From: Psammoneis japonica
Lineage: Eukaryota
Length of the DNA: 58,260 bases
Direction: 5' to 3'
Assembly: GCA_008632985.1 (NCBI GenBank)
Contig: QPGO01000314.1
Location: 1-58,260, forward strand
In this document: in pieces, positions 20 through 35,387 of the stretch
How the letters are laid out: every line of letters starts with the position of its first letter
Position numbering within the stretch: position 1 is the first letter of the stretch
Notes under the pieces: generated by a model
Seen by the model: only the letters and a program-made list of their open reading frames with translations
Told to the model about the DNA's origin: nothing
Database searches by the model: none
Position numbers and translations under genes: made by a program

Positions 20-435
20 ATAGAGAGCAATGAAAAAGAAGTGAAAAACAAGTGCCACTTGACTTACAAAACATGGCATTGCTGCACTGCAATGTTTGGT
101 GTTGTTCAATCCATCACCACTTCTCCAATCAACTTGCCACTGCTCCAAATTCCATTGCTCCAGTTTTTACCCTCATGGTGAAATGGGAAAGGAGCAGGCA
201 TTTGACTAAATGACTCTGACAACACTTGCAAAATCCCCAAAGCCAAGGCAAGAATTTCCACCATGAAAAGCTTGACAAACAGAATGGCATCTTTTGCATC
301 CACCAAAGCACAAGGGGTTCCGGCAATGCCAACACTGACACCCAAGGCAATTTTTGTTAGGCCAACACAGAGTCTGGCCAAAAACATGCCATGGACTGCC
401 TGACAGTGTCCAACACAAACCCAATTTTCTGTCAA
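20..435 (-). pseudogene. Degraded copy of the 3' part and 3' UTR of the V-ATPase c'' (21 kDa proteolipid) gene
   Basis: ORF 106..435 (ENWVCVGHCQAVHGMF...[39 protein letters not shown]) aligns with the intact gene at 34340-34616 ([16 protein letters not shown]...[39 protein letters not shown]). Similarity continues into the 3' UTR. TA and CG sites are mostly replaced by CA/TG. Confidence 0.9.
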
Positions 436-585: not shown

Positions 586-1702
586 TTGATGCTGCCAGTG
601 CTTCTTGCACACTTGCAGATGAAAAGAATGCCAAAGAAGCTGGCAAAAGGAGGACTCCAAAACCCTCATTGACTGGCGGTTTTGCAGCCACAAATTGATG
701 AGAGATGGTCCACTGTGGTTGCATGTGAGCAAGTGGGGACAATGCCAGCATTGTTGTGCCACCATTTCTGGCATGGGAGTGGTGCAATCTGAGCCTGTGT
801 CTCCTCTGCCAGGACAGTGGCAGATGGATGGCAGTGCAGGAGATGTGTGAAAACAAGTGGCTGTGTTTGGTTGAGAAAATGAGCACCTTTGAAATGAAGC
901 TCTCTGCAAGAGCAAGCTGAGCTTTCTTTTGAAATCATGAGAAAGCAGGGCAGTCATTGATGCTGCCAGTGCTTCTTGCACACTTGCAGATGAAAAGAAT
1001 GCCAAAGAAGCTGGCACAAGGAGGACTCCAAAACCCTCATTGACTGGTGGTTTTGCAGCCACAAATTGATGAGAGATGGTCCACTGTGGTTGCATGTGAG
1101 CAAGTGGGGACAATGCCAGCATTGTTGTGCCACCATTTCTGGCATGGGAGTGGTGCAATCTGAGCCTGTGCCTCCTCTGCCAGGACAGTGGCAGATGGAT
1201 GGCAGTGCAGAAGATGTGTGAAAACAAGTGGCTGTGTTTGGTTGAGAAAATGAGCACCTTTGAAATGAAGCTCTCTGCAAGAGCAAGCTGAGCTTTCTTT
1301 TGAAATCATGAGAAAGCAGGGCAGTCATTGATGCTGCCAGTGCTTCTTGCACACTTGCAGATGAAAAGAATGCCAAAGAAGCTGGCAAAAGGAGGACTCC
1401 AAAACCCTCATTGACTGGTGGTTTTGCAGCCACAAATTGATGAGAGATGGTCCACTGTGGTTGCATGTGAGCAAGTGGGGACAATGCCAGCATTGTTGTG
1501 CCACCATTTCTGGCATGGGAGTGGTGCAATCTGAGCCTGTGCCTCCTCTGCCAGGACAGTGGCAGATGGATGGCAGTGCAGAAGATGTGTGAAAACAAGT
1601 GGCTGTGTTTGGTTGAGAAAATGAGCACCTTTGAAATGAAGCTCTCTGCAAGAGCAAGCTGAGCTTTCTTTTGAAATCATGAGAAAGCAGGGCAGTCATT
1701 GA
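586..1702. repeat. Tandem repeat, 3 x 371 bp, near-identical
   Basis: Units start at 586, 957 and 1328 (TTGATGCTGCCAGTG...), and the ORF track repeats with 371-bp offsets. Copies differ by a handful of substitutions; TTGA microhomology is present at the junctions. Confidence 0.97.
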
Positions 1703-2666
1703 AGGTTCTTTGTCTTTTTGGGAGCTCTGTTGAGAGTCACCATGGCAGCTGCAGGAACTGTGGTGCTTTTCTGCCATGAAAAACAAGCCATCAATGCTTG
1801 CAAGAATTGCCAGTGCACCTTCCCCCCCCCAAGAACATGGTTGCCTGCCACTCTGCCTGTGCGGTGCTGGTCTCCTGCTGCTGCAACTCTGGGGTTGCCA
1901 TCAACTCTCTTTGCAGATGTGTGCAACCAGCAAGCAAGCCTTGTTGCATGGCAAAGCTGCTGCTGATTTGTTTGGCACTTCAGCACCCTTGTCATCAAGA
2001 AGTGGATGCCATCAACTGGAATTTTCAAATGGAGACATTGCTGCAGCAAAAGAAATGCAGTGCTCCAACCCTGGTTCAGTGACCCCCATCAAACAGGAAT
2101 TGCTGGACACAAGCTGCTTGCAACACAAGTCTGTTTTTCATCAAAATGGTGGGGGTGACAGCAGTGGGGAGAAATTGGCCATGCCCAGGTGTTTGAAGTG
2201 TGCCTGCAAATGAAATCATTTGGCTCTCTGACACAGCATCAGGGGAGACATTTTTTGGGTTGTCTGCTTTTTGGAGATGATGCCATGGGTGACAAGCATT
2301 CAAGAGCTGCTCAATTTTTTGATGCTGCCATGAATGTTCACCCTGCATCCAATTTGGCAAGACTTTGGTTGTTGGCCAAGCTGGCTGCAACAAACATTTG
2401 GTGTTTTGGTGTCCCCAAGCAACTGGCAGCTTGGAGCTGCAGCTGCTGCCATCTGGAGCAAGTGGGGGCAACTCCAGTGGAGGCAAAGGCTCCGCATGTT
2501 GCAAGTGTGATTTTTCATCTTTGCAGCGGGGTCCATTGGGTGGCCCAGCCAGTGGAGTTGTCTGCAGAATGCTTTGTTTGGAGTTTCTGCACCAGGACAC
2601 CTCAGCAGCAGCTTGTTGTTCACAGCTGTGTGTGCACACTGTGTGGCAGAACAACAGTGCGAAGAC
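1703..2666. other. Unidentified TpA/CpG-depleted sequence (old repeat or dead gene), interrupted by the Copia insertion and continuing at 9785-11079
   Basis: Composition only. The Copia TSD AAGAG joins the two flanks. No motif recognised. Confidence 0.5.
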
Positions 2667-2671
2667 AAGAG

Positions 2672-2947
2672 TGACAGAAATTGAAGGCAAATGGCAAGAA
2701 TTCAAACAACAACTCCTTGCTGCTGTCTAAATGGCAGATGAGTCTCCGCTCAGAGACCGTTGCAGGAGCCGAAAGACGTGCAAGTCGGTGCAATCGGGCT
2801 GCTGTCATCATTCTTGTGAGCCTTGTGGCTCGAAAGCAAACCACATCGCGCGTGAACGCGCGGAACTAAAGCACACAAAACTGTGCGCGGTAAACTAAAC
2901 AGCGCGCGATGCTTCACGCGCATCCAAATCCTGTTCAAATCCTGTCA
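2672..2947 (-). repeat. 3' LTR of Copia element
   Basis: Direct repeat of 9504-9779 with TG...CA termini; preceded on the minus strand by the purine tract at 2948-2953. Confidence 0.97.
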
Positions 2948-5900
2948 CTCCCCAGTTTGCTTGAGGAGCCACAGAAACAGATTCGACTTCGGATGGAATG
3001 AAGTTCCAGAACATGAGGGGGCGGAGAAGGTCCCAGATTTGGGAGTGACCCCAATGCTTGCTGAGAATGTCAGCAGGGTTGTGGGAGCCTTCGATGAAGT
3101 GGAACTCAAGGCAACCAGAGGCAATTGCCTCACGCACACGGTGAAACGACAGTGCGGTGTGTCGCTTGTGTAACTTGGAGTGCGGGATGGTGGCACTGTC
3201 TACAACCGACTTGTTGTCACCGAACATGTAACTGACATTACGGATTGGGACGCCAAGGCAGCGCAGGGTGATGCGCAGGTCGATGATCTGCTCAACACAG
3301 TTCCTTGCGGCAACAAATTCAGATCCACAGGTTGCAGTCTCCACGGTGGCTTGTTTCTTGGAGAACCAATCAGCCGGGAATTTGTTGAGGAAGTGGAGCA
3401 TTCCCATGACAGAGCGTCCGGTGAGCATGCAATGGCACAAGTTTGCATCGACGCAGTGGGTGGTGGTGACGAACTTGCCAAGGGGCGGTGGAGCGTCCTT
3501 CGGGATCATCTCTTCTGCTTCACCACACACGGAATGCATCCATTCATGGGCCGGAGCAGGGAGATCCGAACAGTCGGGCTCTTCCGTGCGAACGCGGAGA
3601 GCACCGTGTCGCATCTTGGAGAGGTGCCCACAGACGCGTTTGGCACGATCCAAGTGGCCTTGACGGGGCGCAGCTCGGAAGCTAGAGAGTGACATGACAG
3701 CCGTGGCAACGTCAATTCGACCAAGGGACACTGCCCATTGGAGTGAACCAACAAGAGACTGGAACTTGTGAATGCCATCGGGTCCCAGCAGTTCGGAAGT
3801 GTCCAGCTCGGGGTGGTCACCCTTCTCCAGAGGTGACAGGGCGTTGGTGGCAGGTTTCTCCCCAAACAGTCGGGCGCAGCTGTCGACCATGCGCTCGATG
3901 TACTTGCGCGGAGACAGGCACAAGGTTCCGTCGGGGTCCCGGGAAAAGTCGCAACCCAGATGGAACTCAATGGGTCCCGCACCCTTGAGCTTGAACTTGT
4001 GCTTTTCCGTGAGAGTGTCGACGAAAGATTGAGGGTCCTTCATGGCAATGGCGAGGTCATCCACACAAACGAAAAATGTGTTCACAGTGGTCGCCGTTCC
4101 TGCGCATCCAAATGTCGGGTTCGGCGCGGCAGGGGAAGAAGCCTTCAGCTCGCAGGCAGTCGGCGAAGCGCTCGTGCCAGCGGAGACCGGAGCTGCGCAG
4201 TCCATGCAGTGCCTCATGGATGACAAGGATGTGTCCTTCGAGTTTGCCAAATTCGGGTCCAGCTACAATGCAAAGCTTCTCCTTGGTGGTGGCTTCAAGG
4301 TGGGCATTGCCAATGTCTGTGGCCCATGTCTCCAGCTCGTTGAGTTCGGCCAGGAAAATCATCAGCCGAAGGCCACGGAGGGAGACTGCTCCGGAGTAGA
4401 CACTGTCGACAGGTACGTCCGTGAGGTGCCCGTCGGCTACGAGTCGTGCCTTGTGGCGACCGTCGTGTTTCACGTCGCACACCAGGTGCACTCGGATCTT
4501 CTTGTGTCCCGCAGGAGGAGTGGAAGACTTGAAGGGCCCGCAGTCATGGAAGACTTCGTATTCGTCGAGTTGGTCCATCTCGAGATTAGTTGCGTCTCCC
4601 CACTTGCGGTTGCCGTTGCGTTCGTCTAGTGACATGGCGTGTTTGCAGTTCCAGGGAACTTCGCATCCGTGCTTGCAGCGAGGTGCAGTGCGGAAGGAGC
4701 GAAGCTTGGCTTGGTTGGCCATGCGAAATGGCTTCTTTTGGCGCCTCGCGATAGTGCGGAACCGCTTCCAGCCATCCGTGTCGAGGAGTCCGTTCTCTCG
4801 TGCACAGATGGCACAGGTGACGGGGTCGTCCTTGGCGATGATGGCAAGAGGCTCGGACATGATCTCCCCACTTTCCCACCCAAGCATGATGTTGTAGCTT
4901 GAGCCTTTCCAGGTTGGGTCGTGAGGCTTCAGAGGTCCTTCGTGTGACACGATGCGTCGAAATTTCCAAATGGTGGTGTCTTCGTCTTCTTGCTCAATGT
5001 GATTCATGATGTCATTGCAGGCAAGGACTTCCTCGTATTCGTCATTGTTGACAGAGCAGACGAACTTAGTGAGCTCGGGATTGCCGTTCACTTTCCATTC
5101 GTGGTCTTCGACGGCCTTGACGATGCGAGCTCTGTGGCGTTGTCCATCCTCTTGTGGCTGCATGAGGAAGGTGCGTCCAATGATGTCTTGCGGATCGAAA
5201 ACTGGCATCTTGGGTGTCCTGATCTCCCCATCAGGAGAATCGACGGGGTTGTCGTCATGGCAAGATTTGATGATGGGTTCAGGTGGCTCCCCATCAGGAG
5301 GATCAAGACGCAGGTTTCGAACGGCAGGATCGGGGGTGGCAGAGCGAACGTTGGACCGGCAGAGGATCTTCTGAGTCTCGTCAGACAGGATCTTGAAGGT
5401 CATCTGGTGGCCGACGTGCTCAGCAATGCCAACGAAGCGTCCACGCAACTCACGGGATTCGGACGGCCAATCGGAGTCATCGAGGTGGAAGCACACTGGT
5501 TCCCACCAGTGAAAGCGAAGCAATGGGCTGATGTCCGGGGTGGATCCAGTGAGAGTCTCGAGGGGCGTGCGCCAGTGGAGACGTGGGGATGCTGTGTGGT
5601 TGAGCATGAAGCACATGCACATGAGCGCCAGCAGCCATGTGTGGGCGGGCGAACCAAAACGGTCCATGACAGTGTTTGCCATGTGCTTCACGGTCTGGTG
5701 TCGACGCTCGGCAAAGTTTTGGTGTTGCTGGTGAGGCTCACTTTGCCAGCTGGAGATGAAGAGGGCGCGCAGGATCCCGAGCACTTTGTTGCTGATCTCA
5801 ACTTGAGCACGGTCGCCAATGAGTTTGGATGGGGCACCACGTTCACTGATCTGATCCTCGAGTGTGTTGACAAACTCTTTGTCCGTCTCAGTGCCGTAGA

Positions 5901-8564
5901 CGTCAGTGACGGTAGACTCGTGCCAACAACAGTTGGGCGCTGGTGCAACCAGAGTCGACGGCCGGGGTGTCGGCACAAACGGTGTCAGTGGCGACAGGCT
6001 CATTGCGGTGGTGTGCATTAAGGGCGGGGTTGGGTGATTTGCAGGCCTTGCGAAGGTGTGCACCGGCGGGCATGCGGGCGCACTGCGTGGTGCAGTCAAA
6101 AGTGCGACGGACCGCATCAGCAGGTAGGAAGCCAAAGCAAGGCCGAAGAGACTCGAAGGGGGGGTCCTTGGGCTGTACAGTGCGCTCTGGAGGTGGAACG
6201 TCATCGCCCTTGGGGTCAATCGCATGCAGATGACACTCGTAGAACACGTCGTCGTTCGGAATGAGGTGATCATCGAGGGCGGACGCGTGATCGGTAGACA
6301 AGGAAGCGGACAAGATGGTCTCGTTGACAACGACACGGTGACGGCAGTTGCCGCATTCGTCAAATGGGTTGGCAGTGGGATCGTCCTGTGGGTCAGAGAT
6401 CGCGTCGTGCCACTGGTCGTCGTCAGTGACAGAGTGATCGAGGACGGAAGGGTCCCATGTGTCATCACCAGTGAGGATGACATGGGGCAGGGTGTCCCAT
6501 TCGGCGTCAGTGCAAGGTCGCATGGCAACATGAGGCAGGCCAGCCTTGATGTCAATGGGGATGACATAGCCATCAGGAGTGGCAATGCGTTGCAAGCCGT
6601 TGGGCACCTTGACAGAGCGATCGTTGACATCCTGTTTGTGCCATTCGAGCTGGCCGCAGGAATGGATGGTCTTGCCCTTTCCCATGCATGCGCACTGATG
6701 GAGGATGGTGATGACGGGACCACGCTGGGTCTCAATGACGGCACCAGCGGTGACAATGGGGATGTCCACCAATTGATGATCGTCAATGCCCTGAACGTCG
6801 ACTTGGCGAGAGGTGCGTGCGATGACGCGAACGTCGTCGCCAGCAATGCCGCCGTTGGCCCCACGATCGACTAGAGCGCCAGTGCGTGTGGAGCGATGAG
6901 CAGAGGCAGAGCAAATGACATTGTGGTTGTCAACGCGGCGGCAAGTGCGGCCGCCAAGTTCTGTGTCATCTGCAGGAGCAGGCGAGGTAGAGGGAGCGGC
7001 GGATGGGCCCGGTCGACCAGCGTTGGGGGGTTGGTTAGGAGACAACAGGCGTTGCAGATCACCGGGTGGCAGTGGCTTGCGCTTGGTGAGGTGCGCCAGG
7101 ATGGGATTGTCCGAAGTGGCGTCCACATGTGCAGCGGAGTCACCACAGTCAGCAGGAGTCGTGTTGGACAAGTTGACATCACCGTCACTCCCAAGGTGTT
7201 GGTCGTGAAGGTTGGCCGTAACAGACTCATGGCAGTTGCTGGCTCGCGGGTTGCGGGGAGGCGGACGAGAGTGCTCAAGGATGATCGCCTTGGAGGAATC
7301 GGGCAACGAATCCCAGAGCCGTTGGTGGTCGGGAGGGAGACGTCTCCATTGGACACCGGTGAGGCTGGGACCGCGGGTGCAGGCAGCATTGGCTTGAAGG
7401 ACGTCAACGTCGCTGTCAATGTCGTAGAACACATCATCGGACGGTTCCTCGGAGCAGACGTCGTGTGCGCACATGGCGCATCGGGGAGCTCGAGGTGTCG
7501 TCTTGGGTTGAAACGTGCTGTCGTGCTGAGCTGCCGCGGAGAGGAGCAAGCCACAGCATTGATCGCATGTGAGGCTCTTGCCACTCTGCGTGCGATGCTG
7601 ATCAGCTTGGTTCTTGACAGCACGGAGTTCCTCGACAGGGTGCACGGCATTCTCGAGCATGACGCGCTTCTGTCCTTCAGAGAAGTGGTCACTGGCGGGG
7701 ATGAGTGCCTCGCACTTGCGCAACTGATCTTGCCAATGAAGGATGAACCCGTGGGTCGGACCTTTCCAAGTGCCATCACCAAGACGTGCGGTGGTGAGGT
7801 GCGTGAGCAGGGTGGAGGACTCGACAGATGCACGGGTGGAGGCAAGCGCGTGCTCAGACAAGGAGCGGTGGACGGTCTGTGCGTCAGAAGACCCCACATT
7901 TTCGCGAATGAGAGCCTTGCCCTTGTCGGTGAGAAGGATGCGTTCGAAGACGGCGAACATGTGCTTTTGCTGTTCAGCAAAGAGCAGTTTGTCTTCGGGG
8001 CTGGTCGGTTTGTACGACGAGTCTAGAATGCACTCGACGTCTTGGGCACGGGCTTGTGCCACAAGTGAGGTGTGCCAAGTGTGCCACTGCTTGTCGGATT
8101 TGAGAGCCGTGAAAGCGGTGGGATCACGCTTGATGCCTCGCTTGAAGTCTCGCACCGGGTCGCGTGCCTTGGTCGGGTTGGTGACATGTGGGAGGTGCAA
8201 GGGGTGAGCTGCCGATGGACACAGAGGACATGCAGTCCGGGCTGAGACGGCAGGCAAGGAACTCGTCATGCGTGAACAAAGAGGAGTCGTTGGCAACGTC
8301 AAGACCTTTGTGTGCTTTGACAATGTACAGGCCAACTGGTGCTGCTAACATGTTCTTATAACCACGGGGCAAAGGGATTGCATTAGTGCCGTTGTCGCAC
8401 TCAAGCGAGTCGATTTGGGACGGCATGAACGTGAACAGTTCCTGATGCGAGTCCGTGCCGTCTTGGGCCAAAGCCAAACGAAGAGGACTCCCAGCACCTT
8501 GGGCAAGCACGGTTCCAACAACGTGCTCGAAACCATCGGTTTGTTGCTGACGAGTGAGAACCAT
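2948..8564 (-). pseudogene. Copia gag-pol polyprotein, frameshifted and Tyr-depleted
   Basis: Pieced together from ORFs 8124..8594 (ATG at 8564), 5903..8335, 4057..6864 and 2895..4250, with frameshifts near 8200, 5930 and 4075. The catalytic YVDD reads CVDD. Confidence 0.93.
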
Positions 8565-9503
8565 GGTAGACAAAAGTGGTGTCAGGACAATCAATTCTGG
8601 TTGGGAAGCAAAGGCAGACTCGAAACTTGGGTGAGAATGGACTTGACTTGAAATGGACTTGACTTGAAATCTTGAACTGTCTTAAAATCAGAAGTCGCCG
8701 GGCTTTGTCACCCCGTTCGTTGTCAAGTGCTAAACTTCCTGTCCGGTCCGTAGAGTTGTGCCGGCACGTCCGAACCCGCAGCCAGTGGCGCTTTGGGTTG
8801 CTTACGAGCGGAGTAGCGGGTTGTAAACCCCTGCAGGCAAGCTGACTGGAGGTGGACAAGACCCCCGAACCGTTCTCATTTTATGTCGGTTGGATTTCCC
8901 GATCAGGCTGGCCAGTTGACGCAGGCGCCAGGTGCTGTGGACGAACGAACAAACGCGGGAAAGCACCCTCGCCCCAACGCAGGCTGCAATCACGGCTGCT
9001 TGCTCTCACAGTCGTCCTCGTGGACCTGGTGGAACTGTGGAGCACCAGCAGTCCGGGGCAGATCAGGCACAATGGACTCGGTGTGCTTGCAGAGTGGCAG
9101 CAAAACCGCAGTCCGAAGAGTGGGCACAGGTTCTTGGCCGTGAAGACATGTGTGCACATGTGTGTCTTCAGCGAGGGAGATCCTTGAACATGCAGGGTTC
9201 TTGACCGTTGACCGATGAATGGGCACACCAAGGGATGAGGATCAAGGACAGACTTGGATGTGACCGTTGAATGCATGTCTTCAACGATCAAAGGCAGTGT
9301 GATCAATCCAGATGTCCAGCGGCAAGGAGACTTGACGGTGACGTTAACTTCCTGCCGATGCCCTGGTGTTGAATGCGCGCAGACTTGCCGATGCATGCAG
9401 GACACACACGGAGGTCCACGCAGAATTGAAGTGGCATCGTTGGCAAATCAACGACGACGATGGCGGTTGCTCAATGGGTTGACAATGAGCAAGACTGTCA
9501 ATC

Positions 9504-9779
9504 TGACAGAAATTGAAGGCAAATGGCAAGAATTCAAACAACAACTCCTTGCTGCTGTCTAAATGGCAGATGAGTCTCCGCTCAGAGACCGTTGCAGGAG
9601 CCGAAAGACGTGCAAGTCGGCACAATCGGGCTGCTGTTGTTGTTCTTGTGAGCCTTGTGGCTCGAAAGCAAACTGCATCGCGCGTGAACGCGCGGAACTA
9701 AAGCACACAAAACTGTGCGCGGTAAACTGAACAGCGTGCGATGCTTCGCGCGCATCCAAATCCTGTTCAAATCCTGTCA
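9504..9779 (-). repeat. 5' LTR of Copia element
   Basis: Direct repeat of 2672-2947, followed by TSD AAGAG. The internal flank on the minus strand reads GATTGACAGTC..., not a canonical TGG-type PBS. Confidence 0.97.
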
Positions 9780-11079
9780 AAGAGAGTTTTCACTTTTGTT
9801 CAACGTTGACAAGGAGTCAACAAGGTCAAATTTTTTTGATGTGGCAGAGGCAATGTTTGGCTGCTCTGTTTGTTTGAGTGCAGAGAAACACATCTTGTTG
9901 AGCTGTGGGTCAGATTCTGTGGCAAGGGTGGTGGCAATGGAGTGACAGATTGCACCATTTTCCATTTGCCAACGGAAATTCTTTTTTTGAGGAAATGGAT
10001 TCCTTTTCCCAGAGCACACCATTTCTTGCTGTGCATCTTTTGTTTCTTTTGCCTCCAGCTGCAATGGCAAATGGCAGTGCTTGTCAGTCCTTTTGCGGGG
10101 CCCACACAATGTAAAATGCAGAAAAAGAGAAAGACAATTGCTGTGAGTGATGATGATCCTTTGTTTGCCATCAGCAAGCTGACCGCTGAAGGCAAGGACA
10201 GCGTTTTTGTGCAAGGGCAAGAGACGCCAATGCCACAATGAAGCAAAACAGCAAACTGGTGCAAAAAATGCGCGCACTTCTGAGCAGAGGAGCTGTTTGC
10301 CAAGTTGGCTTAAATTGGGTGCCAGTGCAATTGACAACCTGGATCTACAAAAGCAGTTGGCTGTCCCATGTCACACAATTTGCTTTGATGTCATTGGCAT
10401 GATGCGCGTGTGATGTGGCAAATGCAACAGCAAACAGCGCAATCTGTCACTCTGATGCACACCCCCCCCCTTGTTTTGGCATTGCAGCAAGATTCTCCAA
10501 GATTCCCTGGGATCTCACCACCTTTTGATGGGCTCTTCCACTGGAAGTGTGAGCTCCCGGGGAGCCACCGTGGGCGCCACTTTGTCGTGCATGTGCTGCA
10601 GACATGCACACAAATTTGTGCGTTGGCGCTTCCCCTCTCACACCTTTCTGTGCCTGCTGCATGCCAGGACATGCAGAGCCACGTGCACCCCCACGCAAAA
10701 CATTGCTCTGGCGTTGTGTCAACACACAAGCAACAGAGCATCTTTGAAGATGGCCAAGGCAAGTGCAGAAGCTTGCAAGGCCAACAAATGTGGTGGGCAC
10801 AATTGTGCGTGACCATGCACGCAACACAGTGTGGGTTGTTTGTCACTGTTGTGCCTCGTCACAACAAATGCGAGCCACACGAGTCATCTGGAGCAAAGGC
10901 CAAGGCCACAGCAGAGCCCTGTGTGCTCAAAACAAATGTGGCTGACTCGCTGTTGTTGTCCACATTTTCCCTCTCCTGTCACAAGGGGCTGCTTTGTGTC
11001 AGCACATCAGCCGTGGTCATTGCCAGCAGTGAGTGCAGCAAGCTGGCGGTCGTGGGGGGTGGGGAGGGCAAAAGCGCCC

Positions 11080-11471: not shown

Positions 11472-12582
11472 GCCCCCAAAAAGAGCTGCTGCACATCATC
11501 GCAATCAACACATTTTTGTTCTCCTCCCCTGAGCCCCATCAGGTGTTCATCCTCTCAAAAATTACCCTCGTCACCCGGGTTGTCCGCAAAAGGGCAAGGC
11601 AACTCCCCCCTGCCCTCGCCATTTTGGGAAACCCCAAATGGGCAAAACCAAGCTGAGCCCCCGCAACCAGCAGGTCAAGCTGTGGTGTCTCAGTGCTCTG
11701 TTTTGTTGCTGACCAATGGAGGTGTGTTGTTGGATTTGGGGCAAGGTGAGTGTGTGAAAATGGTGACTTTTGGCGATTTCATCAAATGACAGATTGAAGC
11801 AATCGAGATGGTCCGTCATGTCATGTCCGTCACCAGTCGGCCTGGTCAGTCTGCCCGTCATGCGTTGAGAGAAGCAGAACCGTTATTTGCAGTGATGCAC
11901 ACCATGACCGAAAATGCCCAGCCTTTCGTTTTCAGCCACAGGCCACAGGAAAAGGCAGCTCATTATTTCGACAGAACCTCATCAAGAGACACAATGTCCT
12001 GAATGGGTGAAAAACAAAAAGCCTCTGCTGCTGTAAATTGTGAACTTGGGGGCAGTGTTGTGCTTCCGAAAAATTGACTATGTACGACAAGAAAGAGCGA
12101 CTTGTGTCAGTGACCGTGTTCACGTAAATCATGCTTCAAAGCCCCCTGGGAAGTGTGCCATGGCATTCCACTGGTCGAATCTATGCATAAATTGACCTCT
12201 CAAACGGAGCTTCTCGGTGATGACCTTGTGTGTGGAGTGCATACGGTGTCGCGGATCTCTTCCTGCATAGCGAGCTACGGTAGTGTCGACATGCTCGTTT
12301 TGAAAAGTGCTTTTGCACTGGCTCTCTCTCTTCGACTGGATTGTTGTGCTGCAAGACACAAGAGCCAATCGCAAGAACTTTTTTCTCTCTGCGGAGAAAA
12401 CGACGCATTTTCCGTCGTTTGCGAACGCGAGTGTCATCACATGTACTGTACATACCACGTACCGCGTAGTTTCTACGCAGGCATGACTCGGGATCGCGAA
12501 ATAGTAAATGAGTTGTTCTCACTGTTCTCATACTTCTACACTGTACACAACATCAAAACCAGATTGATTGTCAACTGCCGTG

Positions 12583-14454
12583 ATGAATCATCGTAGAAAG
12601 AAATTGAAAAGATTGGAGAAACGTCTTGGTCGCCGTGGCAAGGAACGCCACGATGAAGGAGAAGGAGGCTTGTTGGAAGAACAGGCAACAGCAAGTTACG
12701 GTCTCGGCTCTATTATCAACGATATTCATGTTGACGAAGAGACTATGGAAGAGGAACAAAAGGTTGAAGAAACTGATGAAAGTAGTCCAGCATCTACCTT
12801 GACGGGTGCTCATGCAATGAGTCAACAAGGGGAGGTCCGTCGTGGTAGTGCACAAGCAGGTGGCGACGATGTTAGCCATGCCATTGTGTGTGACGTGGAG
12901 ACGGATCCCATGCCTCCTCCACAGCCAGTGCAGGGCAATGAAGCACTTCTTGTAGAAGCCCATTTAGTTGAACGGGCTGATAATGCAGAAGATGTGCGAG
13001 AACAAATGGCTACACTCGAGCAAGAAAACATGCGACTTCGAAATAAAGTTCCGCTAGTACAAGCCGAGGTCGCTCAAGAAAATACGAGAAGCAAGGGCCC
13101 TCGTCGCAAATGCTTGATTGTTATGGGTGTTACAGCACTTCTGATTACTGTGGCGGTTGTTGCTGGAGTTTCTGTCACTGGAGGCGGTGGCACGTTTCCG
13201 CCGATCCCCCCGCAGTCTCCAACATTGTCGCCCACTGTTCCACCCATGCAGTCTCCCACTAGACCCCCTATTACTGTCATTCCTGCTGATTGGATTCCCG
13301 CTGGTCAAATCTTGCATGGCAAAGCGGTGTGTGATTTTTTTGGCAGTTCTGTATCCTTGTCTCGTGATGGTCGTGTCATGGCTGTTGGCGCAACGCCGCA
13401 ATGTTCCAATCGCGGCTATGTTGGTGTCAATCGATACAATCCTGCCACCCATGAATGGATGCAAATTGGCCAAGAATTGATCGGACAAGCCGGCCTCGAC
13501 AATTTTGGAGAGTCTGTTTCGTTAAATGGCGACGGCACCATTCTTGCGGTTGGAGCTCCATTGAATGACAGTGGCGGAACGACAGCCGGTCAAGTGCGAG
13601 CGTATGAATACAACTCTGTATCGGATCATTGGGTCCAACTCGGTAGCGATATCCTTGGACAAGACTCCGGTGATGAATTTGGCATTTCCGTGTCGCTGTC
13701 GGACGCGGGAGACATTCTTGCCGTGGGAGCACACAGGGATGATACGGAAAAAGGTGTAAAGTCTGGTTCGGTTCGATTGTTTCAATACGACCGCGGCACC
13801 TCATCCTGGAGCCAACTCGGACAAACGCTGATTGGCCAAGCCGCTTATGATCATTTTGGCTTTTCCGTCTCCTTAAATGCGCTGGGAACCATTGTTGGAG
13901 TTGGAACAATTGTATGGGCTTCGAGTGACGCTGGCCAAGTGTCGGTGTATGAATACAATTCTACATTGGCAAGATGGGATCTGTTGGGGGATCCAATCAA
14001 ACGCCAAGATGTTGATGATTGGTTGGGAGACTCCGTTTCTCTTGACGACAGCGGTGTGATCGTGGCCGCAGGTGTGCCTGGAAGCAACCCGAGGGTTTTG
14101 GTTTATTCGTACGACCGCTCGACTTTGACATGGAATCAACGTGGCCAAACTCTCTTTTCACAACACCCTGATGATCTTGTTGGTTTCTCGGTGTCGTTGA
14201 GTGGAAATGGAAATGTCTTGGGGGTCGGAAGTGGAATGCGGGGTCAAGTTCGAATCTTTCAGCATGACAGCAATGCAGATGAATGGAAGCAAGTTGGCGA
14301 TCCTTTAAATGGCGAGGCTGAGCATGATGAAGATTTTGGACATTCCGTGTCCTTGTCGGCCGACGGAAGCGTCGTTGGAGTTGGCGCGCCCATGACTGAT
14401 GTCAATGGCGACAGGTCCGGATCCGTGCATGCATTCACGGCAAATGACAATTAG
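12583..14454 (+). CDS. Single-pass membrane protein with FG-GAP-like beta-propeller repeats (paralog 1)
   Basis: Intact ORF; ATG at 12583 matches the start of paralog 2. Acidic N-terminus, short coiled coil, one TM helix (LIVMGVTALLITVAVVAGVSV), Pro-rich linker, seven FGxSVSLSxDGxxLAVGA-type repeats. Confidence 0.88.
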   Translation: MNHRRKKLKRLEKRLGRRGKERHDEGEGGLLEEQATASYGLGSIINDIHVDEETMEEEQKVEETDESSPASTLTGAHAMSQQGEVRRGSAQAGGDDVSHAIVCDVETDPMPPPQPVQGNEALLVEAHLVERADNAEDVREQMATLEQENMRLRNKVPLVQAEVAQENTRSKGPRRKCLIVMGVTALLITVAVVAGVSVTGGGGTFPPIPPQSPTLSPTVPPMQSPTRPPITVIPADWIPAGQILHGKAVCDFFGSSVSLSRDGRVMAVGATPQCSNRGYVGVNRYNPATHEWMQIGQELIGQAGLDNFGESVSLNGDGTILAVGAPLNDSGGTTAGQVRAYEYNSVSDHWVQLGSDILGQDSGDEFGISVSLSDAGDILAVGAHRDDTEKGVKSGSVRLFQYDRGTSSWSQLGQTLIGQAAYDHFGFSVSLNALGTIVGVGTIVWASSDAGQVSVYEYNSTLARWDLLGDPIKRQDVDDWLGDSVSLDDSGVIVAAGVPGSNPRVLVYSYDRSTLTWNQRGQTLFSQHPDDLVGFSVSLSGNGNVLGVGSGMRGQVRIFQHDSNADEWKQVGDPLNGEAEHDEDFGHSVSLSADGSVVGVGAPMTDVNGDRSGSVHAFTANDN

Positions 14455-17282: not shown

Positions 17283-19990
17283 TTGGATGCCCCTGAACAT
17301 TTAACAGCCAACGACAGCCTTGCAGAGATCATCAGCTGTGTGAACAATGAGAAAGCCTTTGCAAACAAAGGCAGCAGCAAGAAGCAAGACAAGCAAAGGG
17401 AAAGCAATGCTCCTTCACCCCAATCTTCAAGACATTGTCATGGGAGTGGCAGCCAAGTGGATCCAGAGTCCAGGTGTCCGGCACACACCAATCATGACCA
17501 CAAGCGGAAGGGCTGTCAAGGTGGAGGCCAAAGCAATTGTCAAGGCAGAGGTTTGCAAGACCAAGGAGGTTGTGGCAACTTCCGAGGTCAAGGACGTGGT
17601 GTTTGTGGCAACCAAGGCAATTGTGGCAGCCAAGGTTGCGGCAACTGTCAAGGTCCCCAGAATTCTCAAGGTGGAGGATCCTGTTGTCAAAATCAAAATG
17701 GCGCACAAGCCAACCGTGACACCCAAGGCTGTAAAAATCTGGCTGGAGCAGCTCCTCCTGGTGACTGGCAAATGGAGTTGCACCATTTTGATTGAGAAGG
17801 GCCTCATGAGTTGTGAGGTGGAAATGGGTGCAACCAAGGTGGTTGTTTCCCTCCAGCCAGCAAGCATTGCATGTGTTGTTAGATTCAGGAGGCACTGACA
17901 CCCTTGTGCATTCTCATGTTTCACCCAAGGGAGCCAATCCAACTGTGAATGATGAGGGGTGGCTGAGTTTTCAGACAGCAGCTGGGCATTGTGAATCATC
18001 CCAATGTGCCATCATGAAGAATCTGGTGCCACCCGCATTTGACAAGTCCAAACAAGTTGATGGCATTGCTGCTCAAGCTTTTGACTCTCCGTGCAAACAT
18101 GATGTGAGACATTGAGCCAAGAAGGCTGTCTTTCCAAGGCCAGCACAACACTTGATTTTTGGTTTGGAGTCATGAAGTGGTTGGATGATTTGATCCCAAT
18201 GAAGCAACCCAATCATTGGAATCAAGTTCATGGCTGGTTGGATGTGCTGGACAACCACAAAGAGGATGAAGATGATGAGGACCTCCAGGGTCAAGCTTTC
18301 ATCATGCCAGATGTCAAGTGTGAGAGAAGGTGTCAACTGTGAAAGTGACACAATTGCAAACTCATTTGACCCAGGACCAACGTGACAAGCTTCACACCAT
18401 GCTTGAAAAGCACAAAACCCTCTTTGATGGGACGGTTGGCAAACATCTGCATGAAACCAATTTTTGGAAGTTGATCCTGGTGCCATTCCCTTTCACTCTA
18501 AAGCCCACAAAGCACCAAAGAGAGATGAGGCTGTTTTTAAGAAGGAACTGCACAACATCTTTGCAACGTTGGCACACTGGAATCAGCAGGACCAACAGAG
18601 TGGGTGGCCGGAACCTTCCCAACACCCAAAAAGGATGGACAAGTGGGATGTGTGTCCAACTTCCAAGAATTGAACAAGGTGCTCAAGTGGAAGGTGTCCT
18701 CCACACAATTTACACCAACAATTGGGGTGCAAGTTTTTAACCAAACTGGACCTCACCATGTTCTGCTGTCACATCGAGCTTGACAAAGAATCCAAGGATT
18801 TGCATGCTGTTGTTGCTCTGCTTGGAAAGTTCCAACATTGTCAACCAGCCATGGGTCTGAAAACTTCTCCCAACATTGCTCAAACTGTCATTGAGAAAGT
18901 GTCAAACAAACTTGATGTCAAAGCTTGTGTTGATGACATTGCTCAATTTGATGACTTGTTTGACACTCACATGCAGCACCGACTTGACAAGTTGCAGTCC
19001 AGACTGGAAGAGAATGACCTCAAGGTCAATCCACTCAAGTGTGAGTGGTGCGTCCAAGAGACGGATGTTCTGGGTCATTGGCTCACACCTGCAGGAGCTT
19101 GACCATGGAAGAAAAAGGTCAAAGCAGTTCTGCAGATGCAACCTCCTCAGAATGTGATGCAGCTGCAATCTTTCATTGGTGCAGCATCCTGTTGTCACAA
19201 CATGTGGCCTCATTGCTCTCATGCACTTGCTCCACTTACAAAGTCAACCAGCAAGAGCAAGTTGGAATGGACCCCAGAGTGTCAGAAAGCCTTTGAAGAC
19301 ATGAAAACATTGATGTTGGACAACACCCTTTGGGTCCACCCAAACCACAACAACTCCTCCAACTGTCAGATGGGTGCAGCGATCATGCAAGAAGGGAAGC
19401 CGGCAGCACATTGGTCTCAGAAGCTCAGTGCAGTGCAGCAAAATCACTCCACTGTTGAGAAAGAGCTCCTTGCTGTGGCAATGTGTTGCAAAGAATTCCG
19501 CACCATGTTGCTTGGGGCTGATTGTGCTGTTTTCACTGACCACAAAAACCTCACCTTTTGTGTGCTCAACTCTCAACAAATGCTCAGGTTGAGACTCTTT
19601 TTGGAGGACTTTGCTCTGACCTTCAAGCATGTTGACAGCAAGGATGACTCAATGGCAGATTGTTGTTCCCAATTGCCTTGCATTGAACCTCCAATGGAAG
19701 GAAATTGTGCTCCCAATCAGGGCAAATTGATGGATTTCAAGGCAATTGACACTGCCACACCACCTCATGAAGAGAAACTTGACAACCCAGATCACGTGTC
19801 TTGTTTTTCCTTTTGTTGTGAAGAACCATCTCATTTCCACTCCTCCTTTGTTGATGATCCTGATCTGTGTGAATCATTTTTGAACTGTCCCTCACTTGAC
19901 AAAATGCAAAATCCCACAACCATGCAGTCAATTTAAGAGCACCAATTTGTCGACATGGAATTGAGTGACATGCAACACAACAAAACACAA
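17283..19990 (+). mobile_element. Ty3/Gypsy retrotransposon relic (gag end, protease, RT, RNase H; integrase not seen)
   Basis: Protease LLDSG (~17880); RT KFLTKLDL...AMGLKTSPNIAQ...CVDDI...LKVNPLKCEW...LGHWLTP; RNase H QMGAAIMQEGKP...EKELLA...FTDHKNL...MADCCSQLP. Many stops and frameshifts. Confidence 0.9.
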
Positions 19991-29260: not shown

Positions 29261-29380
29261 CTCTACCGGCATCTCATTGCATTGTGGTGAAATCGGGTTC
29301 GCGTATCGCATCTTTATCTCGTTTCTCGTTCGTCGTTCGTGCCGAAAAAAAAAACGTAAGATGACTTTTTATCAATCACC

Positions 29381-31231
29381 ATGATGAATCGTCGCAACAA
29401 GGCCTTCAAAGCACCAGAGAATAGTTTTGGCCGTGGCAGCAAGGGAGGCCACGAAGAAACAGAAGAAGTGCAAGAGGACTTGGAACAAATCCAAGAAGAG
29501 CAAGAACAAGAACAAGCACGATCGAATGTTGCTTTTGCCGCTTACAGCACTTCTCATGTGGTCGAGGAGAATCAAGAAGAAGCTGAAGAAACAACTCCGG
29601 CATCTGCCTTGGCCGGTGCTTTTGCAGTGAGTCAACAAGGGATGGTTCGTCGTGATCGTGGACGAGCAAGCCGCGATAACACTGGCATCAGCGTTTTGTC
29701 TGACTTTGGGACAGTACAATCTGAACCCATGATGCCGCCTCCACCGCCTGCACAAGACGATGACACACTTCTTGTAGAAGCCCATTTAGCTGAGCCGGAT
29801 GACAATGTAGAAGATGTGCGAGAACAAATGGCTACACTAGAACAAGAAAATATGCGTCTTCGAAATGAAGTTCCGCTGGCACAAGCTGAGCCTTCTCAAG
29901 AACGTGCGAGCAACAAGGTCCGTCGTCGCAAATGCTTTGTTGTTCTGGGAGTTGCAGCACTTCTGATCACTGTGGCGGTTGTAGTTGGAGTTGCTGTCAC
30001 TGGAGGTGGTGGCGCTTTTCCGCCGTCAACGCTTGCGCCTGCTAATTGGAATCCAGTTGGTCAAGTCATGCACAATGGAAAAGTTTCAAGTCATAATTTT
30101 GGGAGCTCCATCTCCTTGTCCCGTGATGGCAGTATCATGGCGATCGGAGCAGGTAGCCTTGTCTCTTCCGGCTATGTTATTGTGCAACAATACAGTCCAA
30201 GCACCCAACAATGGATGCAAATTGGCCAAGAATTGATTCTACAAGCCGGCGGTGACAATTTTGGCAATTCCGTTTCATTAAATGGTGATGGAACGATTCT
30301 TGCTGTTGGAGCTCCGTGGAATGACAGTGGCGGAACGACAGCCGGTCAAGTGCGAGTGTATGAATACAACTCTGTATCGGATCATTGGGTCCAACTCGGT
30401 AGCGATATCCTTGGACAAGACTCCGGTGATGAATTTGGTATTTCCGTGTCGCTCTCGGACGCGGGAGACATTCTTGCCGTGGGAGCGTCGGCTGATGAGA
30501 CGGTAAATGGTAAACGGTCTGGTTCGGTTCGATTGTTTCAATACGACCGTGACTCCTCATCCTGGAACCAACTCGGACAAACACTCATTGGACAAGCTAC
30601 TGCTGATTATTTCGGCATTTCCGTTTCCTTGAATGCGCAGGGAACCATTGTCTGTGTTGGAGCGTATTTTAATGATTCAGGTTCAAATGCTGCTGGTCAA
30701 GTGTCGTCATATGAATACAATTCTGCCTGGTCAAGATGGGACATGTTGGGCGGCCCAATCAATGGACAAGTCGTAAATGCCAAGTTTGGATATTCTGTTT
30801 CTCTTGACGACAGCGGTTTGATCGTGGCCGCGGGTGCACCTGAAAATGACGAGAGGGTTTTGGTTTATACGTATGACCGTTTGACTTTGACATGGAATCA
30901 ACGTGGCCAAACTCTTTTGACGCAACAGCCCCACAATGGTTTTGGATGGTCAGTGTCGTTGAGTGGCAATGGAAAAGTGTTGGCTGTCGGTAGTTTGTAT
31001 CACAGCGTCAATGGATCGATCTATGGCCAAGTCCAAATCTTTCAATACAACAGCAACACCGCCATATGGAATCAGTTTGGTGATCCTTTAAATGGTGAGG
31101 CAGAAAATGATTATTTTGGATATTCCGTGTCCTTGTCGGCAGATGGAAGCGTCGTTGGAGTTGGTGCTTATGGAGCTGATGACGATGGCGAATCTTCTGG
31201 AACCGTGTATGTATTTACATCGAACAATTAG
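29381..31231 (+). CDS. Single-pass membrane protein with FG-GAP-like beta-propeller repeats (paralog 2)
   Basis: Intact 616-aa ORF collinear with paralog 1: AGAFAV and LVEAHL motifs, TM helix, seven FGxSVSL repeats, normal Tyr content. Confidence 0.9.
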   Translation: MMNRRNKAFKAPENSFGRGSKGGHEETEEVQEDLEQIQEEQEQEQARSNVAFAAYSTSHVVEENQEEAEETTPASALAGAFAVSQQGMVRRDRGRASRDNTGISVLSDFGTVQSEPMMPPPPPAQDDDTLLVEAHLAEPDDNVEDVREQMATLEQENMRLRNEVPLAQAEPSQERASNKVRRRKCFVVLGVAALLITVAVVVGVAVTGGGGAFPPSTLAPANWNPVGQVMHNGKVSSHNFGSSISLSRDGSIMAIGAGSLVSSGYVIVQQYSPSTQQWMQIGQELILQAGGDNFGNSVSLNGDGTILAVGAPWNDSGGTTAGQVRVYEYNSVSDHWVQLGSDILGQDSGDEFGISVSLSDAGDILAVGASADETVNGKRSGSVRLFQYDRDSSSWNQLGQTLIGQATADYFGISVSLNAQGTIVCVGAYFNDSGSNAAGQVSSYEYNSAWSRWDMLGGPINGQVVNAKFGYSVSLDDSGLIVAAGAPENDERVLVYTYDRLTLTWNQRGQTLLTQQPHNGFGWSVSLSGNGKVLAVGSLYHSVNGSIYGQVQIFQYNSNTAIWNQFGDPLNGEAENDYFGYSVSLSADGSVVGVGAYGADDDGESSGTVYVFTSNN

Positions 31232-31289: not shown

Positions 31290-31646
31290 AAAAGACAGCA
31301 GCAGTGTTATTATGTAGAGAGAAATGCAAAAGAAGTGTATCGCAAAAGGCAATGTCTAACACTTGTCATAAGTATAGTGGTGTTCAATCTATCGCTTCTT
31401 CTCCAACTCGCTACTGCTCCAAATAGAATATACTAAAGTTTTTTTACGCCAGCGGCACAATGGGAAAGGGGCAGGCATTCGACTGAATGATTGCGACAAT
31501 GATTCCAATCCCCAACGCCGAGGTAAAGGTTTCAACAATCAAAATCATGACAACCAAACTGGCATATCCTGCGCATCCGCCAAGGCACACGATGATCCGG
31601 CAATGCCGACATTGACGCCCGATGCAACATTGTAGGCCGACACTAC
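31290..31646 (-). pseudogene. Second truncated copy of V-ATPase c'' 3' end and UTR
   Basis: ...ILIVETFTSALGIGIIVAIIQSNACPFPIVPLA* matches the C-terminus of 33875-34616, with indels; UTR similarity continues. TA and CG are retained. Confidence 0.9.
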
Positions 31647-33874: not shown

Positions 33875-34616
33875 ATGTCTTCCGATACGTGTTCGTCTGA
33901 ATTTTGCAATGCCGGTTGGTCCGAAGTCTTGACTCACATGAGTCCCTATGGTTATGCCAATTTTGGCATTGCCTTTGGACTTGGATTGAGTGTTGTGGGT
34001 GCCGCATGGGGTATTTGGTTGACGGGCTCCAGTTTGGTGGGTGCGGCCGTGAAAGCACCGCGTATTCGGAGTAAAAATCTAATTAGGTATGTAGAATGAA
34101 TACTGGAAATGTAGAGTGAACACGAAAATGAAAGAATTTGGGAGAAAAACAAACAACAACACAACAACATGGCATCGCTTCTCTATTTTATCACTAGTCA
34201 CTCTCTTCTCTCTCTCTCTTCTCACACTCACTCACTCTCTCTCTCTCTACAGTGTCATTTTCTGTGAAGCCACCGCGATTTACGGAGTCATTATGGCTAT
34301 TATTCTCGCCAACAAGGTCAAGGCTCCCGACGATGCCGTTTATTATCTAGATGAAAATTGGGATTGGGCCGGATACTACTATGCCGGTTATGGCATGTTT
34401 TCCGCTGGACTTAGTGTCGGCTTGACCAATATTGCCTCGGGCGTGAGTGTCGGCATTGCCGGATCGTCGTGTGCTCTGGCGGATGCACAAGATGCCAGTT
34501 TGTTTGTCAAGATTTTAATTGTGGAAATTTTTGCGTCGGCGCTTGGTATTTTTGGAATTATTGTCGGCATTATTCAATCGAATGCGTGCACCTTTCCCAT
34601 TGCGCCGTTGGCGTAA
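33875..34616 (+). CDS. VMA16: V-type H+-ATPase V0 subunit c'' (21 kDa proteolipid); exons 33875-34086 and 34253-34616, 191 aa
   Basis: [48 protein letters not shown]...[24 protein letters not shown]. The GT-AG intron 34087-34252 joins the exons in frame. Confidence 0.95.
34201..34250. repeat. Imperfect (CT)n microsatellite / polypyrimidine tract in V-ATPase intron
   Basis: CTCTCTTCTCTCTCTCTCTTCTCACACTCACTCACTCTCTCTCTCTCTAC directly before the 3' AG. Confidence 0.9.
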
Positions 34617-35387
34617 GTAGTATTCTATATTTGGAGTAGGAGTAATAGCGAGTTGGAGAAGAAAAGCGATGGATTTGAACGCGACACGAGGCACTGCAAT
34701 GCAGGTATATCATGATTGTAGGACAAGTAGCAAGTAGTAGATACTGGCTTTTGTTTTTCACTTCTCCCGCGTTTCTCTCTACGGAGGGTCCGAAACAGGT
34801 CGCCTTTTTGACTCGCCATTGAAAAACTTTACTCCATTCCACGGAAGCACCAAAAGTTTTGATGTGTGAGCCGCTCTACTCTTCCCCCCGAGAGTGCATC
34901 GCCACAGAATTGGAACCACAATGCCGAATTGCACTCACACCACATGCTCGAATGACAGTTTTGTGTCTCCACAGATGAATGCAAGACGACTTGAAGAATC
35001 GCAACCTATACTCGTACACAAGCGGATTAGGGCTACACTGTATTGAGTATAGCTCTTGAGAAGAGAGTCGATGCCTGGTAGAGAAATGTGGAACCAGACT
35101 CCACTTGTGCCCCAGTGTCTGGCATGCCCGAGTGTAGCACAAGACGGGGCTTTTGAGCATGTAATTTGCATATAACCGTAGTCGGGTCTTTTGTGCCAAT
35201 GACGATTGATTGGCCAAAGGGCTCGAAAAAGGAATTCAATCGAGTGTGGCAACTCGGGAGAACAACAACAGAGTCCCGCCAAAGGGTTTTCCTCTCAAAG
35301 GTGTTACGCACATTGCTGGTTTTGAGCACCTAAAAGTGTATAGTGGTCACCCAATATTTTGCGGCCTGCGTAAAAAGATGCTGTAGT

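Follow-up and report, generated by a model that had tools for sequence, protein, structure and literature searches.

The closest described system to the one considered here is a hypermutation restricted to the dinucleotide TpA, which strikes viral DNA integrated into the genome of the chlorarachniophyte Bigelowiella natans (Mettrop et al., bioRxiv 10.64898/2026.01.13.699255, 2026). In this preprint, 231 of 302 new nuclear single-nucleotide mutations in mutation-accumulation lines fell in two integrated viral regions, and all but one of these 231 were AT to GC changes, all of them at TpA (210 of 211 in one region and 20 of 20 in the other). New mutations arose at a rate of about 6e-7 per site and generation; the authors proposed an ADAT2-like deaminase and found TpA-poor coding sequences enriched in reverse transcriptase and DDE domains. 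Here, we analysed a single window, positions 1 to 58,260 (58 kb) of the forward strand of contig QPGO01000314.1 from the Psammoneis japonica assembly GCA_008632985.1, which carries at 2672-9779 what its sequence identifies as a Ty1/copia-type long terminal repeat (LTR) retrotransposon of the diatom CoDi-like lineage, read from right to left. The LTR pair, the codons and the surroundings of this element suggest that the locus is a new instance of TpA-directed DNA hypermutation in another lineage, here on retrotransposons and to near saturation.

The locus and the B. natans system have much in common: TpA turns into TpG or CpA, either strand is hit, the target is chromosomal DNA (in the present case probably so), delimited regions lie beside normally mutating DNA, and the long-term footprint is a depletion of TpA with a gain of CpA and TpG. 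Several features set them apart. The host here is a diatom, i.e. a stramenopile and not a rhizarian, and the DNA seen to be hit comprises LTR retrotransposons, a satellite and one fragment of a pseudogene, whereas there it consists of inserts of giant viruses and virophages. The observed-to-expected ratio (obs/exp) of TA lies at 0.00-0.25 in 77 of 114 bins, near saturation, against 0.45 in their region derived from nucleocytoplasmic large DNA viruses. CpG loss follows in the same domains here, and our evidence is comparative, while theirs comes directly from mutation accumulation. The near absence of G:C to A:T change reported there does not hold for this locus, since changes of the CpG type account for two LTR sites out of seven and for 10 of the 18 private changes of the assembled copy among the variant rows compared, and CpG is at or below 0.3 in 40 of the 114 bins. 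The words CpG, LTR, retrotransposon and diatom do not occur in the text of the preprint. A full-text literature search, judged by titles and abstract openings and with subscription journals outside it, returned no TpA-directed mutation in diatoms, and the signature itself only in the B. natans preprint.

Repeat-induced point mutation (RIP) of ascomycete fungi is similar in that dinucleotide-directed transitions ruin repeats, striking both copies on either strand, and make once-identical copies look more diverged. However, RIP turns C into T, mostly in CpA, which becomes TpA, so that TpA is made, whereas here TpA is destroyed with a net gain of G and C. Enrichment of TpA is not found: TA stands at 0.16 in the element and at 0.00-0.15 in most repeat bins, while CA and TG are enriched. 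Three FG-GAP gene paralogues at 72-78% identity are unaffected here. In animals, ADAR (A to I, in RNA) and APOBEC3 (C to U, in cDNA) edit retroelements before integration and on one strand. The clustered, neighbour-preferring transitions by which they inactivate retroelements resemble the present ones, and the 5' T/U preference matches that of ADAR; yet one-strand editing before integration can neither make two LTRs differ in both ways nor strike DNA that is not a retroelement. Finally, the decay of CpG through 5-methylcytosine (5mC) also concerns a self-complementary pyrimidine-purine (YpR) step that ends as TG or CA according to the strand, and it is seen in the window as a slower second arm, but with CpG at 0.90 versus TpA at 0.16 in the element it leaves the LTR doublets and the tyrosine codons described below unexplained. 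In diatoms, DNMT5a methylates CpG in transposons and its loss depletes DNA methylation, which bears on this CpG arm only, and RID-related DNMT4 genes are noted there without an assigned function (PMC9998398).

Differences between the LTRs and their ancestral state

A direct-repeat search of positions 1500-11000, followed by alignment and a position-by-position script, returned a single repeat family, 2672-2947 with 9504-9779 (276 nt, 96% identity); no second copy of the LTR or of the element was found within the window. The element ends in TG...CA and is flanked on both sides by the 5-bp target-site duplication AAGAG. Its coding strand is the minus strand, which makes the LTR at 2672 the 3' LTR, adjoined by a purine run (GGGGAG) on the sense strand, and the LTR at 9504 the 5' LTR. 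The two differ at 11 of 276 bases. All 11 differences are transitions, and they group into seven sites, namely four CA/TG doublets (LTR positions 118-119, 135-136, 138-139 and 171-172, with the counterparts in the other LTR 6832 positions further on) and three single-base sites (TA vs TG at LTR position 226, CG vs TG at 234 and CA vs CG at 245); the remaining 262 positions show no difference. An earlier note on this DNA, made from the letters alone, had placed all seven sites in TA, TG, CA or CG dinucleotides and had sorted them into four CA/TG double differences, one TA vs TG and two CG vs TG/CA. Alignment and position-wise comparison reproduced both statements, and the strings quoted there are all present as written. 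Chance is a poor explanation of the arrangement: at least four adjacent pairs arose in 0.03% of 200,000 random placements of 11 differences, YpR steps cover 52% of the LTR positions, which gives P ~0.01 for seven of seven sites, and the all-transition outcome has P ~0.01 even with a transition-to-transversion ratio of 2.

Which dinucleotide was ancestral at the doublets? Four independent lines of evidence, from codons, family contigs, polymorphic rows and composition, support TA and not CG as the probable ancestor, as the earlier note had supposed. For the codons, we regarded as conserved the columns with at least 80% agreement among at least 40 sequences, using for each frame the first 80 of 120 listed homologues. 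In the frame of reverse transcriptase (RT) and RNase H, aligned over residues 66-418 (residues 1-65 precede the frameshift and 419-455 lie past the conserved end), 193 of 214 conserved columns are identical to the query. Its 12 tyrosine columns read Y 2, C 7, H 2 and F 1, and all 15 arginine columns are kept, 14 of them as CGN. The frame of integrase and RT (INT-RT) has 255 identical columns among 280 conserved ones; here the 14 tyrosine columns read Y 3, C 6, H 3, F 1 and W 1, with arginine kept at 23 of 24 columns, 22 as CGN. Taken together, 21 of 26 tyrosine columns are changed versus 25 of 468 other conserved columns (Fisher 7e-20).

A change of the codon TAY to TGY is an A to G at TpA, and that of TAY to CAY a T to C at TpA. 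Tyrosine was turned into Cys or His at 18 of 26 columns (Cys TGY 13, His CAY 5; Tyr kept at 5), whereas Cys, His, Gln or Trp replaced arginine at none of 39 columns (P 3e-10); arginine was kept at 38 of 39, in 36 cases as CGN. The excess of Tyr-to-Cys over Tyr-to-His changes, a sense-strand bias toward A to G, is not significant (P 0.096). Conversion has thus reached about three quarters of this copy's TA sites, while the CpG codons were retained. Composition points the same way, with 501 CpGs in the element at the obs/exp of 0.90 given above, against the 0.16 of TA.

The other copies of the family were compared over 2400-9450 in Logan contigs of four runs (X1-X4) of one sample, possibly the assembly's own data; 40 of the 373 variant rows were compared by context, and the row counts refer to these 40. 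The family is young and very high-copy: the summed depth over the element is 40,000-436,000 vs 33 in the flank, and 14,293 X1 contigs fall on the element. Transitions make up 328 of the 362 variable places in X1. Among the rows compared, 22 are polymorphic, and 20 of these, at 15 sites, alternate between TA, CA and TG. For example, at 4397-8 the assembled copy has TA and the family CA (62%) or TG (21%), at 4670-1 and 5337-8 the simplest decomposition is CA, TA and TG together, and at 5889 TA accounts for 68% of the family. At 9499-9500, five contig ends of X2-X4 read TA where the assembled copy has CA. The remaining 18 rows are private to the assembled copy (92% or more of the family depth has another state); 10 are changes of CpG to TpG or CpA and eight are others.

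The doublet sites themselves can be followed in part. Position 2790, in doublet site 1, is A in 64% of the X1 summed depth and in nine of nine contigs of X2-X4, which with no listed change at 2789 means TA; had the ancestor been CG, a row at 2789 of equal support would be expected among those listed, and there is none. At doublet site 4, one X3 contig end reads TA. The earlier note had proposed to align all genomic copies of the LTR; the part of this check that the rows compared cover returned TA for sites 1 and 4, with sites 2 and 3 outside these rows. An X1 variant of 17 contigs has CG at 2916 and, at 2910-11, CA where both assembled LTRs have TG, the kind of same-direction double hit that is invisible to a pairwise comparison of LTRs. 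A search for relatives of the LTR in metagenome contigs with a 24-letter degenerate motif gave six loci; BLAST returned only 28-29-base matches in five of them and none in the sixth (L003), and these loci were set aside as chance.

The TAs that survive offer a hint about the flanking bases. Those in the LTRs all stand in TAAA, and the five kept tyrosine codons are all TAC. Surviving TAs are followed by T in 7 of 106 cases in the element and in 6 of 106 between 14 and 28 kb, compared with 212 of 636 in gene DNA. These counts tentatively suggest that the process has a preference for the 3' neighbour.

Repeat and gene domains of the window

Is the loss of TA confined to the element? A degenerate copy of a V-ATPase subunit c exon near the left end of the window (Table 1) provides a control outside it. 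At the 20 TA sites of the parent, this copy reads TG 7, CA 4, TA 2 and other 7, and at the 23 CG sites CA 8, TG 5, CG 1 and other 9. A second V-ATPase c fragment (31377-31645) lies in a gene-rich domain and has kept most TA and CG, whereas the copy in the repeat domain lost both; the fate of these fragments is set by position, not by origin. Changes of A to G or T to C at TpA, as in B. natans, are thus found at 18 of 26 tyrosine columns, at 11 of 20 TA sites of the parent gene and at 15 family sites. Doublets of CA vs TG recur in other repeats of the window as well, with four in the pair at 44688 and 44986 (154 bp) and two in the pair at 28618 and 28994, and other repeat pairs also differ by TA vs CA, TA vs TG, CG vs TG and CG vs CA.

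Across the window, binned at 500 bp, the 77 bins with TA at or below 0.25 include many at 0.00-0.10, and CA+TG rises up to 1.7-2.0. In 40 of these TA-poor bins CG is at or below 0.3 too. A CG value of 0.3 or less never coincides with a TA value above 0.4, while in 17 bins TA is 0.25 or less and CG still at least 0.7, and 13 of these 17 lie in the element. The gene regions at 12.0-14.0, 29-37.5, 51-53 and 55-58 kb, non-coding parts included, show TA at 0.3-0.9 and CG near 1. The borders of TA loss are sharp at the 500-bp resolution (~12.0, 14.0, 28.5-29.0, 38.0, 51.0, 53.0 and 55.0 kb), so that delimited target regions, as in B. natans, are found within one 58-kb window.

Between 14000 and 28500, a stretch of about 14 kb that is complex and looks non-repetitive, with TA at 0.00-0.15 and CG at 0.07-0.27, holds a Ty3/gypsy-type remnant. 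In its RT_RNaseH part (19103-19936, plus strand), compared at columns with at least 60% agreement among 150 representatives, none of four conserved tyrosines is kept (1 C, 3 H) and three of eight arginines are (4 Q, 1 H). This remnant, which has lost both dinucleotides, and the bin pattern together suggest that TA is lost fast and first, and CpG more slowly and later.

Two further kinds of repeat in the window may be described here. A satellite at 586-1702 consists of three tandem 371-bp units that are 99.2-99.3% identical and have TA and CG at 0.00-0.04, so these units were amplified or homogenised after the loss of the dinucleotides. The FG-GAP paralogues at 12568-14454, 29360-31231 and 35639-37151, 72-78% identical over about 1.2 kb, have normal TA and CG; repetition at this identity alone does not bring on the process.

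On the sense strand, the 5' LTR carries four T-to-C changes and one A-to-G change, and the 3' LTR three A-to-G changes and one T-to-C change. Since both directions occur within each LTR and on the coding strand, and since the pseudogene and the satellite are affected too, we infer a process that acts on double-stranded chromosomal DNA. The claim of the earlier note that the changes arose in DNA, on both strands and after insertion, is borne out to this extent: the two LTRs of a single insertion show changes in both directions and DNA other than retroelements is affected, as judged from comparative data and an assembly that is possibly a mosaic.

We consider it highly probable that the element is a copia copy of a high-copy diatom family that was hit after its insertion by fast TpA-directed mutation plus slower CpG decay, in repeat domains only. 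Once it was chromosomal DNA, the element would have been struck by a fast process aimed at 5'-TA-3'. A change of A to G on the top strand would turn TA into TG, and a change of the A on the bottom strand would turn it into CA. Some 70-80% of the TA sites of the element would have been converted in this way, and most ancestral TAs of the LTRs would have been struck independently in both, with opposite-strand hits leaving a CA/TG doublet and same-strand hits leaving no visible difference. If half of the double hits fall on opposite strands, 8-12 ancestral TA sites (A×T/N gives 16 for the LTR) at about 75% conversion lead one to expect some 2-3 doublets, and four were seen. A second, much slower process from CpG to TpG or CpA, as from cytosine methylation, may account for the two CG sites and would be near complete in the older repeats. 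Both processes would be limited to repeat and pseudogene domains and spare the neighbouring genes and intergenic DNA.

How fast is the TpA-directed process? The absence of differences at the 262 other LTR positions bounds the background at 0.0115 per pair or less (95% bound), and by our arithmetic the TA-directed rate per target base is then at least about 70 times the background. The Kimura two-parameter distance of the LTR pair is 0.0415 overall, although those 262 positions contribute nothing to it, and the earlier note was right to expect that dating by LTR divergence would overestimate the age of this element. The comparisons establish the pattern, its direction, the action on both strands, the domain structure and the rate relative to other positions. 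As to chemistry, the pattern could be produced by an enzymatic adenine-to-inosine deamination in DNA at TpA, directed to silenced chromatin, as proposed for B. natans.

Alternative explanations and points against

Could the doublets instead stem from CpG, with methylated cytosines deaminated on one strand in one LTR and on the opposite strand in the other, so that CG became TG in one copy and CA in its partner? CpG decay has clearly left its mark on this DNA: at two of the seven LTR sites CG stands against TG or CA, more than half of the private changes are of this type, and the older repeats of the window stand at CG obs/exp 0.03-0.25. For the doublets, such an origin is nevertheless very improbable, because the element has kept its 501 CpGs, 36 conserved arginines are still CGN with none of 39 lost to Cys, His, Gln or Trp, and family contigs carry TA at sites 1 and 4. 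Moreover, about 4.5% of the CpG site-copies of the LTRs changed (2 of 44), and with some 26 CpG sites this rate yields about 0.03 doublets versus the four seen; an ancestral CG in a CpG-depleted element, as 5mC would leave it, is not what we found. Hyperedited retroelement copies occur in animal genomes, and a change before integration would be either an ADAR-like A-to-I editing of RNA at UpA or an editing of single-stranded cDNA during reverse transcription. The 5' U preference of ADAR, which the B. natans preprint states (10.64898/2026.01.13.699255), fits TA. Still, we regard this explanation as extremely unlikely. Both LTRs are copied from one RNA, so edits outside R would give identical LTRs, and cDNA editing should, as we infer from reverse transcription, run in one direction per LTR, whereas mixed directions are seen in each, an observation that upholds the argument of the earlier note against RNA editing before reverse transcription. 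The coding region likewise shows both sense directions (13 Tyr-to-Cys, 5 Tyr-to-His), the pseudogene fragment and the satellite, which are not retroelements, are equally depleted, and one-strand changes identical in both LTRs, as ADAR would leave them, were not found.

A different objection is that the two LTRs lack one shared insertion history, either because the assembly is a mosaic of a family with thousands of copies or because other copies converted them. The very high summed depth over the element compared with its flank would invite such a mosaic, no listed contig runs across an LTR and the flank contig stops 27 bases inside, two N gaps indicate a scaffolded assembly, and four doublets within 55 bp are what a conversion tract would give. 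On the other side, the 5-bp duplication around the element is intact, and for several of the 18 private alleles the depth with the allele of the assembled copy is about 2-7 times the 33 of the flank (64 at 3144, 102 at 3246, 216 at 4653), which partly fits a real individual copy or a small subfamily; for other private alleles the depth reaches about 970, and for five it is at or near 0. We judge this objection improbable, and even if it were true, differences between copies would carry the same TA-derived both-strand signature, and only the dating and the statement that the changes came after this insertion would fall. A rather unlikely alternative is that the same pattern arose by another chemistry, in which the T of TpA is modified and then mispaired or repaired to C, or in which repair or gene conversion is biased specifically at TA steps. 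TA is self-complementary, so that A to G and T to C on opposite strands look alike. A general GC-biased conversion would, however, not be confined to TA, and non-YpR positions of the LTR show 0 differences in 262; conversion of adenine to inosine gives A to G without a further step; and the one experimental precedent, B. natans, also proposes deamination, without proof (10.64898/2026.01.13.699255).

TpA-directed mutation after insertion, joined by a slower CpG decay, hence remains the reading that we prefer, and several observations weigh against it. TA at doublet site 1 follows from the absence of a listed row at 2789, which is not in itself proof, and the TA support from the family among the rows compared covers doublet sites 1 and 4 only, not 2 and 3. 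Some rows run the other way: at 4753 the assembled copy has TA and the family TG at full depth, at 3710 the assembled copy has CG and the family TG, and at 4879-80 the assembled copy has CC and the family TT. With 10 of 18 private changes of the CpG type, the process is not TpA-only as reported in B. natans. No listed contig spans an LTR, the run data, possibly those behind the assembly, are no independent support, and the assembled copy may be partly a mosaic of several family copies. Furthermore, three or four TAs survive in both LTRs, more than a uniform conversion of 75% predicts, which points to heterogeneity among sites or contexts, and the conversions of the left LTR at sites 2-4 are on the strand with a 3' purine, the apparently unfavoured context. 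Lastly, A to G on one strand is indistinguishable from T to C on the other, and a deamination of adenine is thus an interpretation of the pattern.

The element, its host and the possible meaning of TpA loss

The coordinates of the features are collected in Table 1.

Table 1. Features of the retrotransposon at 2672-9779 and of the pseudogene control (window positions)
Feature	Position	Strand	Basis or detail
Degenerate copy of V-ATPase subunit c exon (parent 34353-34732), control outside the element	53..429	+	71.5% identity
Target-site duplication AAGAG, left copy	2667..2671	.	sequence comparison of flanks
3' LTR (left on + strand), 276 bp, TG...CA ends	2672..2947	-	repeat search, coding strand, adjoining purine run; + strand states at the seven sites in order: TG, CA, CA, CA, TA, CG, CA
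Doublet site 1	2789..2790	.	TG here, CA at 9621-2
Doublet sites 2 and 3 (2806-7, 2809-10)	2806..2810	.	CATCA here, TGTTG at 9638-42
Doublet site 4	2842..2843	.	CA here, TG at 9674-5
Three single-base sites	2897..2916	.	2897 TA vs TG; 2905 CG vs TG; 2916 CA vs CG
Second half of RT and RNase H	2895..4262	-	in frame from about residue 66; homologue alignment
Integrase and first half of RT	4057..6870	-	homologous from about residue 335; RVT_2
Gag-protease part and start of integrase	5903..8344	-	frameshift separates it from the next frame
5' LTR (right on + strand), 276 bp	9504..9779	-	repeat search, alignment; + strand states at the seven sites in order: CA, TG, TG, TG, TG, TG, CG
Target-site duplication AAGAG, right copy	9780..9784	.	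sequence comparison of flanks

The assignment to Ty1/copia is based on the reading frames. The INT-RT frame contains an RVT_2 domain (PF07727, E 1.7e-11), and integrase precedes RT in it: residues 335-937 align at 99% coverage with long copia polyproteins, with RT at residues 784-925. The RT-RNase H frame has 2,458 homologues, the best of them 60-69% identical and most of them PF07727, and copia-type polyproteins match, with 51-69% identity, both this frame and INT-RT residues 335-937. Homologues with a named source come from the diatoms Cylindrotheca and Fistulifera. Pfam called no gag or integrase domain in the frames of the element at E 0.001. The active-site motif of RT, in the RT-RNase H frame, reads CVDD where the homologues have YVDD. 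Three frames are needed for pol, hence at least two frameshifts, and most family contigs differ at the frame breaks by single-base indels (near 4072-4076 and 5919-5927), with extra bases near 5919-5927; the frameshifts and these indels together indicate that the assembled copy is dead. The loss of TA also strips the element of TAA and TAG stops (17+22 on the plus strand and 11+14 on the minus strand, with TGA at 161 and 114), and its 7.2 kb hold 27 frames of at least 100 codons, in all six frames, several of which overlap by more than 1 kb.

The host is a diatom, judging by its genes. The best named relatives of the HOOK gene at 31728-33392 are from Seminavis, Synedra, Epithemia, Nitzschia and Cylindrotheca, at about 50% identity, and its neighbours are FG-GAP genes and the V-ATPase subunit c gene. 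Two runs of N, 42668-42969 (302 bases) and 46076-46493 (418 bases), mark the record as a scaffolded assembly, which bears on the trust that can be placed in the interiors of repeats.

Is the tyrosine signature found elsewhere? Among the 80 homologues of the RT-RNase H frame, two public copia-type proteins carry it. In one of them (P0015, 62% identical), 10 of 15 conserved tyrosine columns hold Cys or His and the tyrosine content is 0.2% versus 4.7 ± 0.6% in 78 others; in the other (P0078), five of 17 columns do. P0015 was struck partly at other columns or with other residues than the assembled element, so it would represent an independent case of the signature, possibly from another organism. 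Among the 80 INT-RT homologues, none has three or more Tyr-to-Cys/His changes.

For annotation and dating, the consequences are practical. LTR-divergence dating would be badly biased in such genomes, with a divergence of 4.15% here that includes no difference outside sites derived from TA or CG, TA-poor DNA would lead to false gene calls, and the noise from Tyr to Cys or His would distort transposon phylogenies. The ordered loss of TA and then CpG may serve as a two-clock record of the ageing of silenced DNA. For base-editing research, an enzyme from nature that acts on the A of TpA in chromosomal DNA would be of interest.

Targeted A:T-to-G:C editing of chromosomal DNA at TpA, known from one preprint of 2026, would gain a second, distantly related lineage, and the saturation of retrotransposons makes the spread and the enzyme of the process directly searchable. 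We speculate, more tentatively than for the history of the element itself and with some doubt, that diatoms possess a genome defence in which an enzyme erases TpA from invading and repeated DNA across whole chromatin domains. The enzyme would edit the adenine, or else the thymine, of double-stranded chromosomal DNA at a rate at least about 70 times that of change at other positions, with CpG decay following. We further speculate that this is the same system as in B. natans, hence old and widespread among stramenopiles, alveolates and rhizarians (SAR). If this were true, thousands of fresh retrotransposon copies would be sterilised in effectively no neutral time, and what remains of them would be stop-codon-poor DNA full of long spurious frames.

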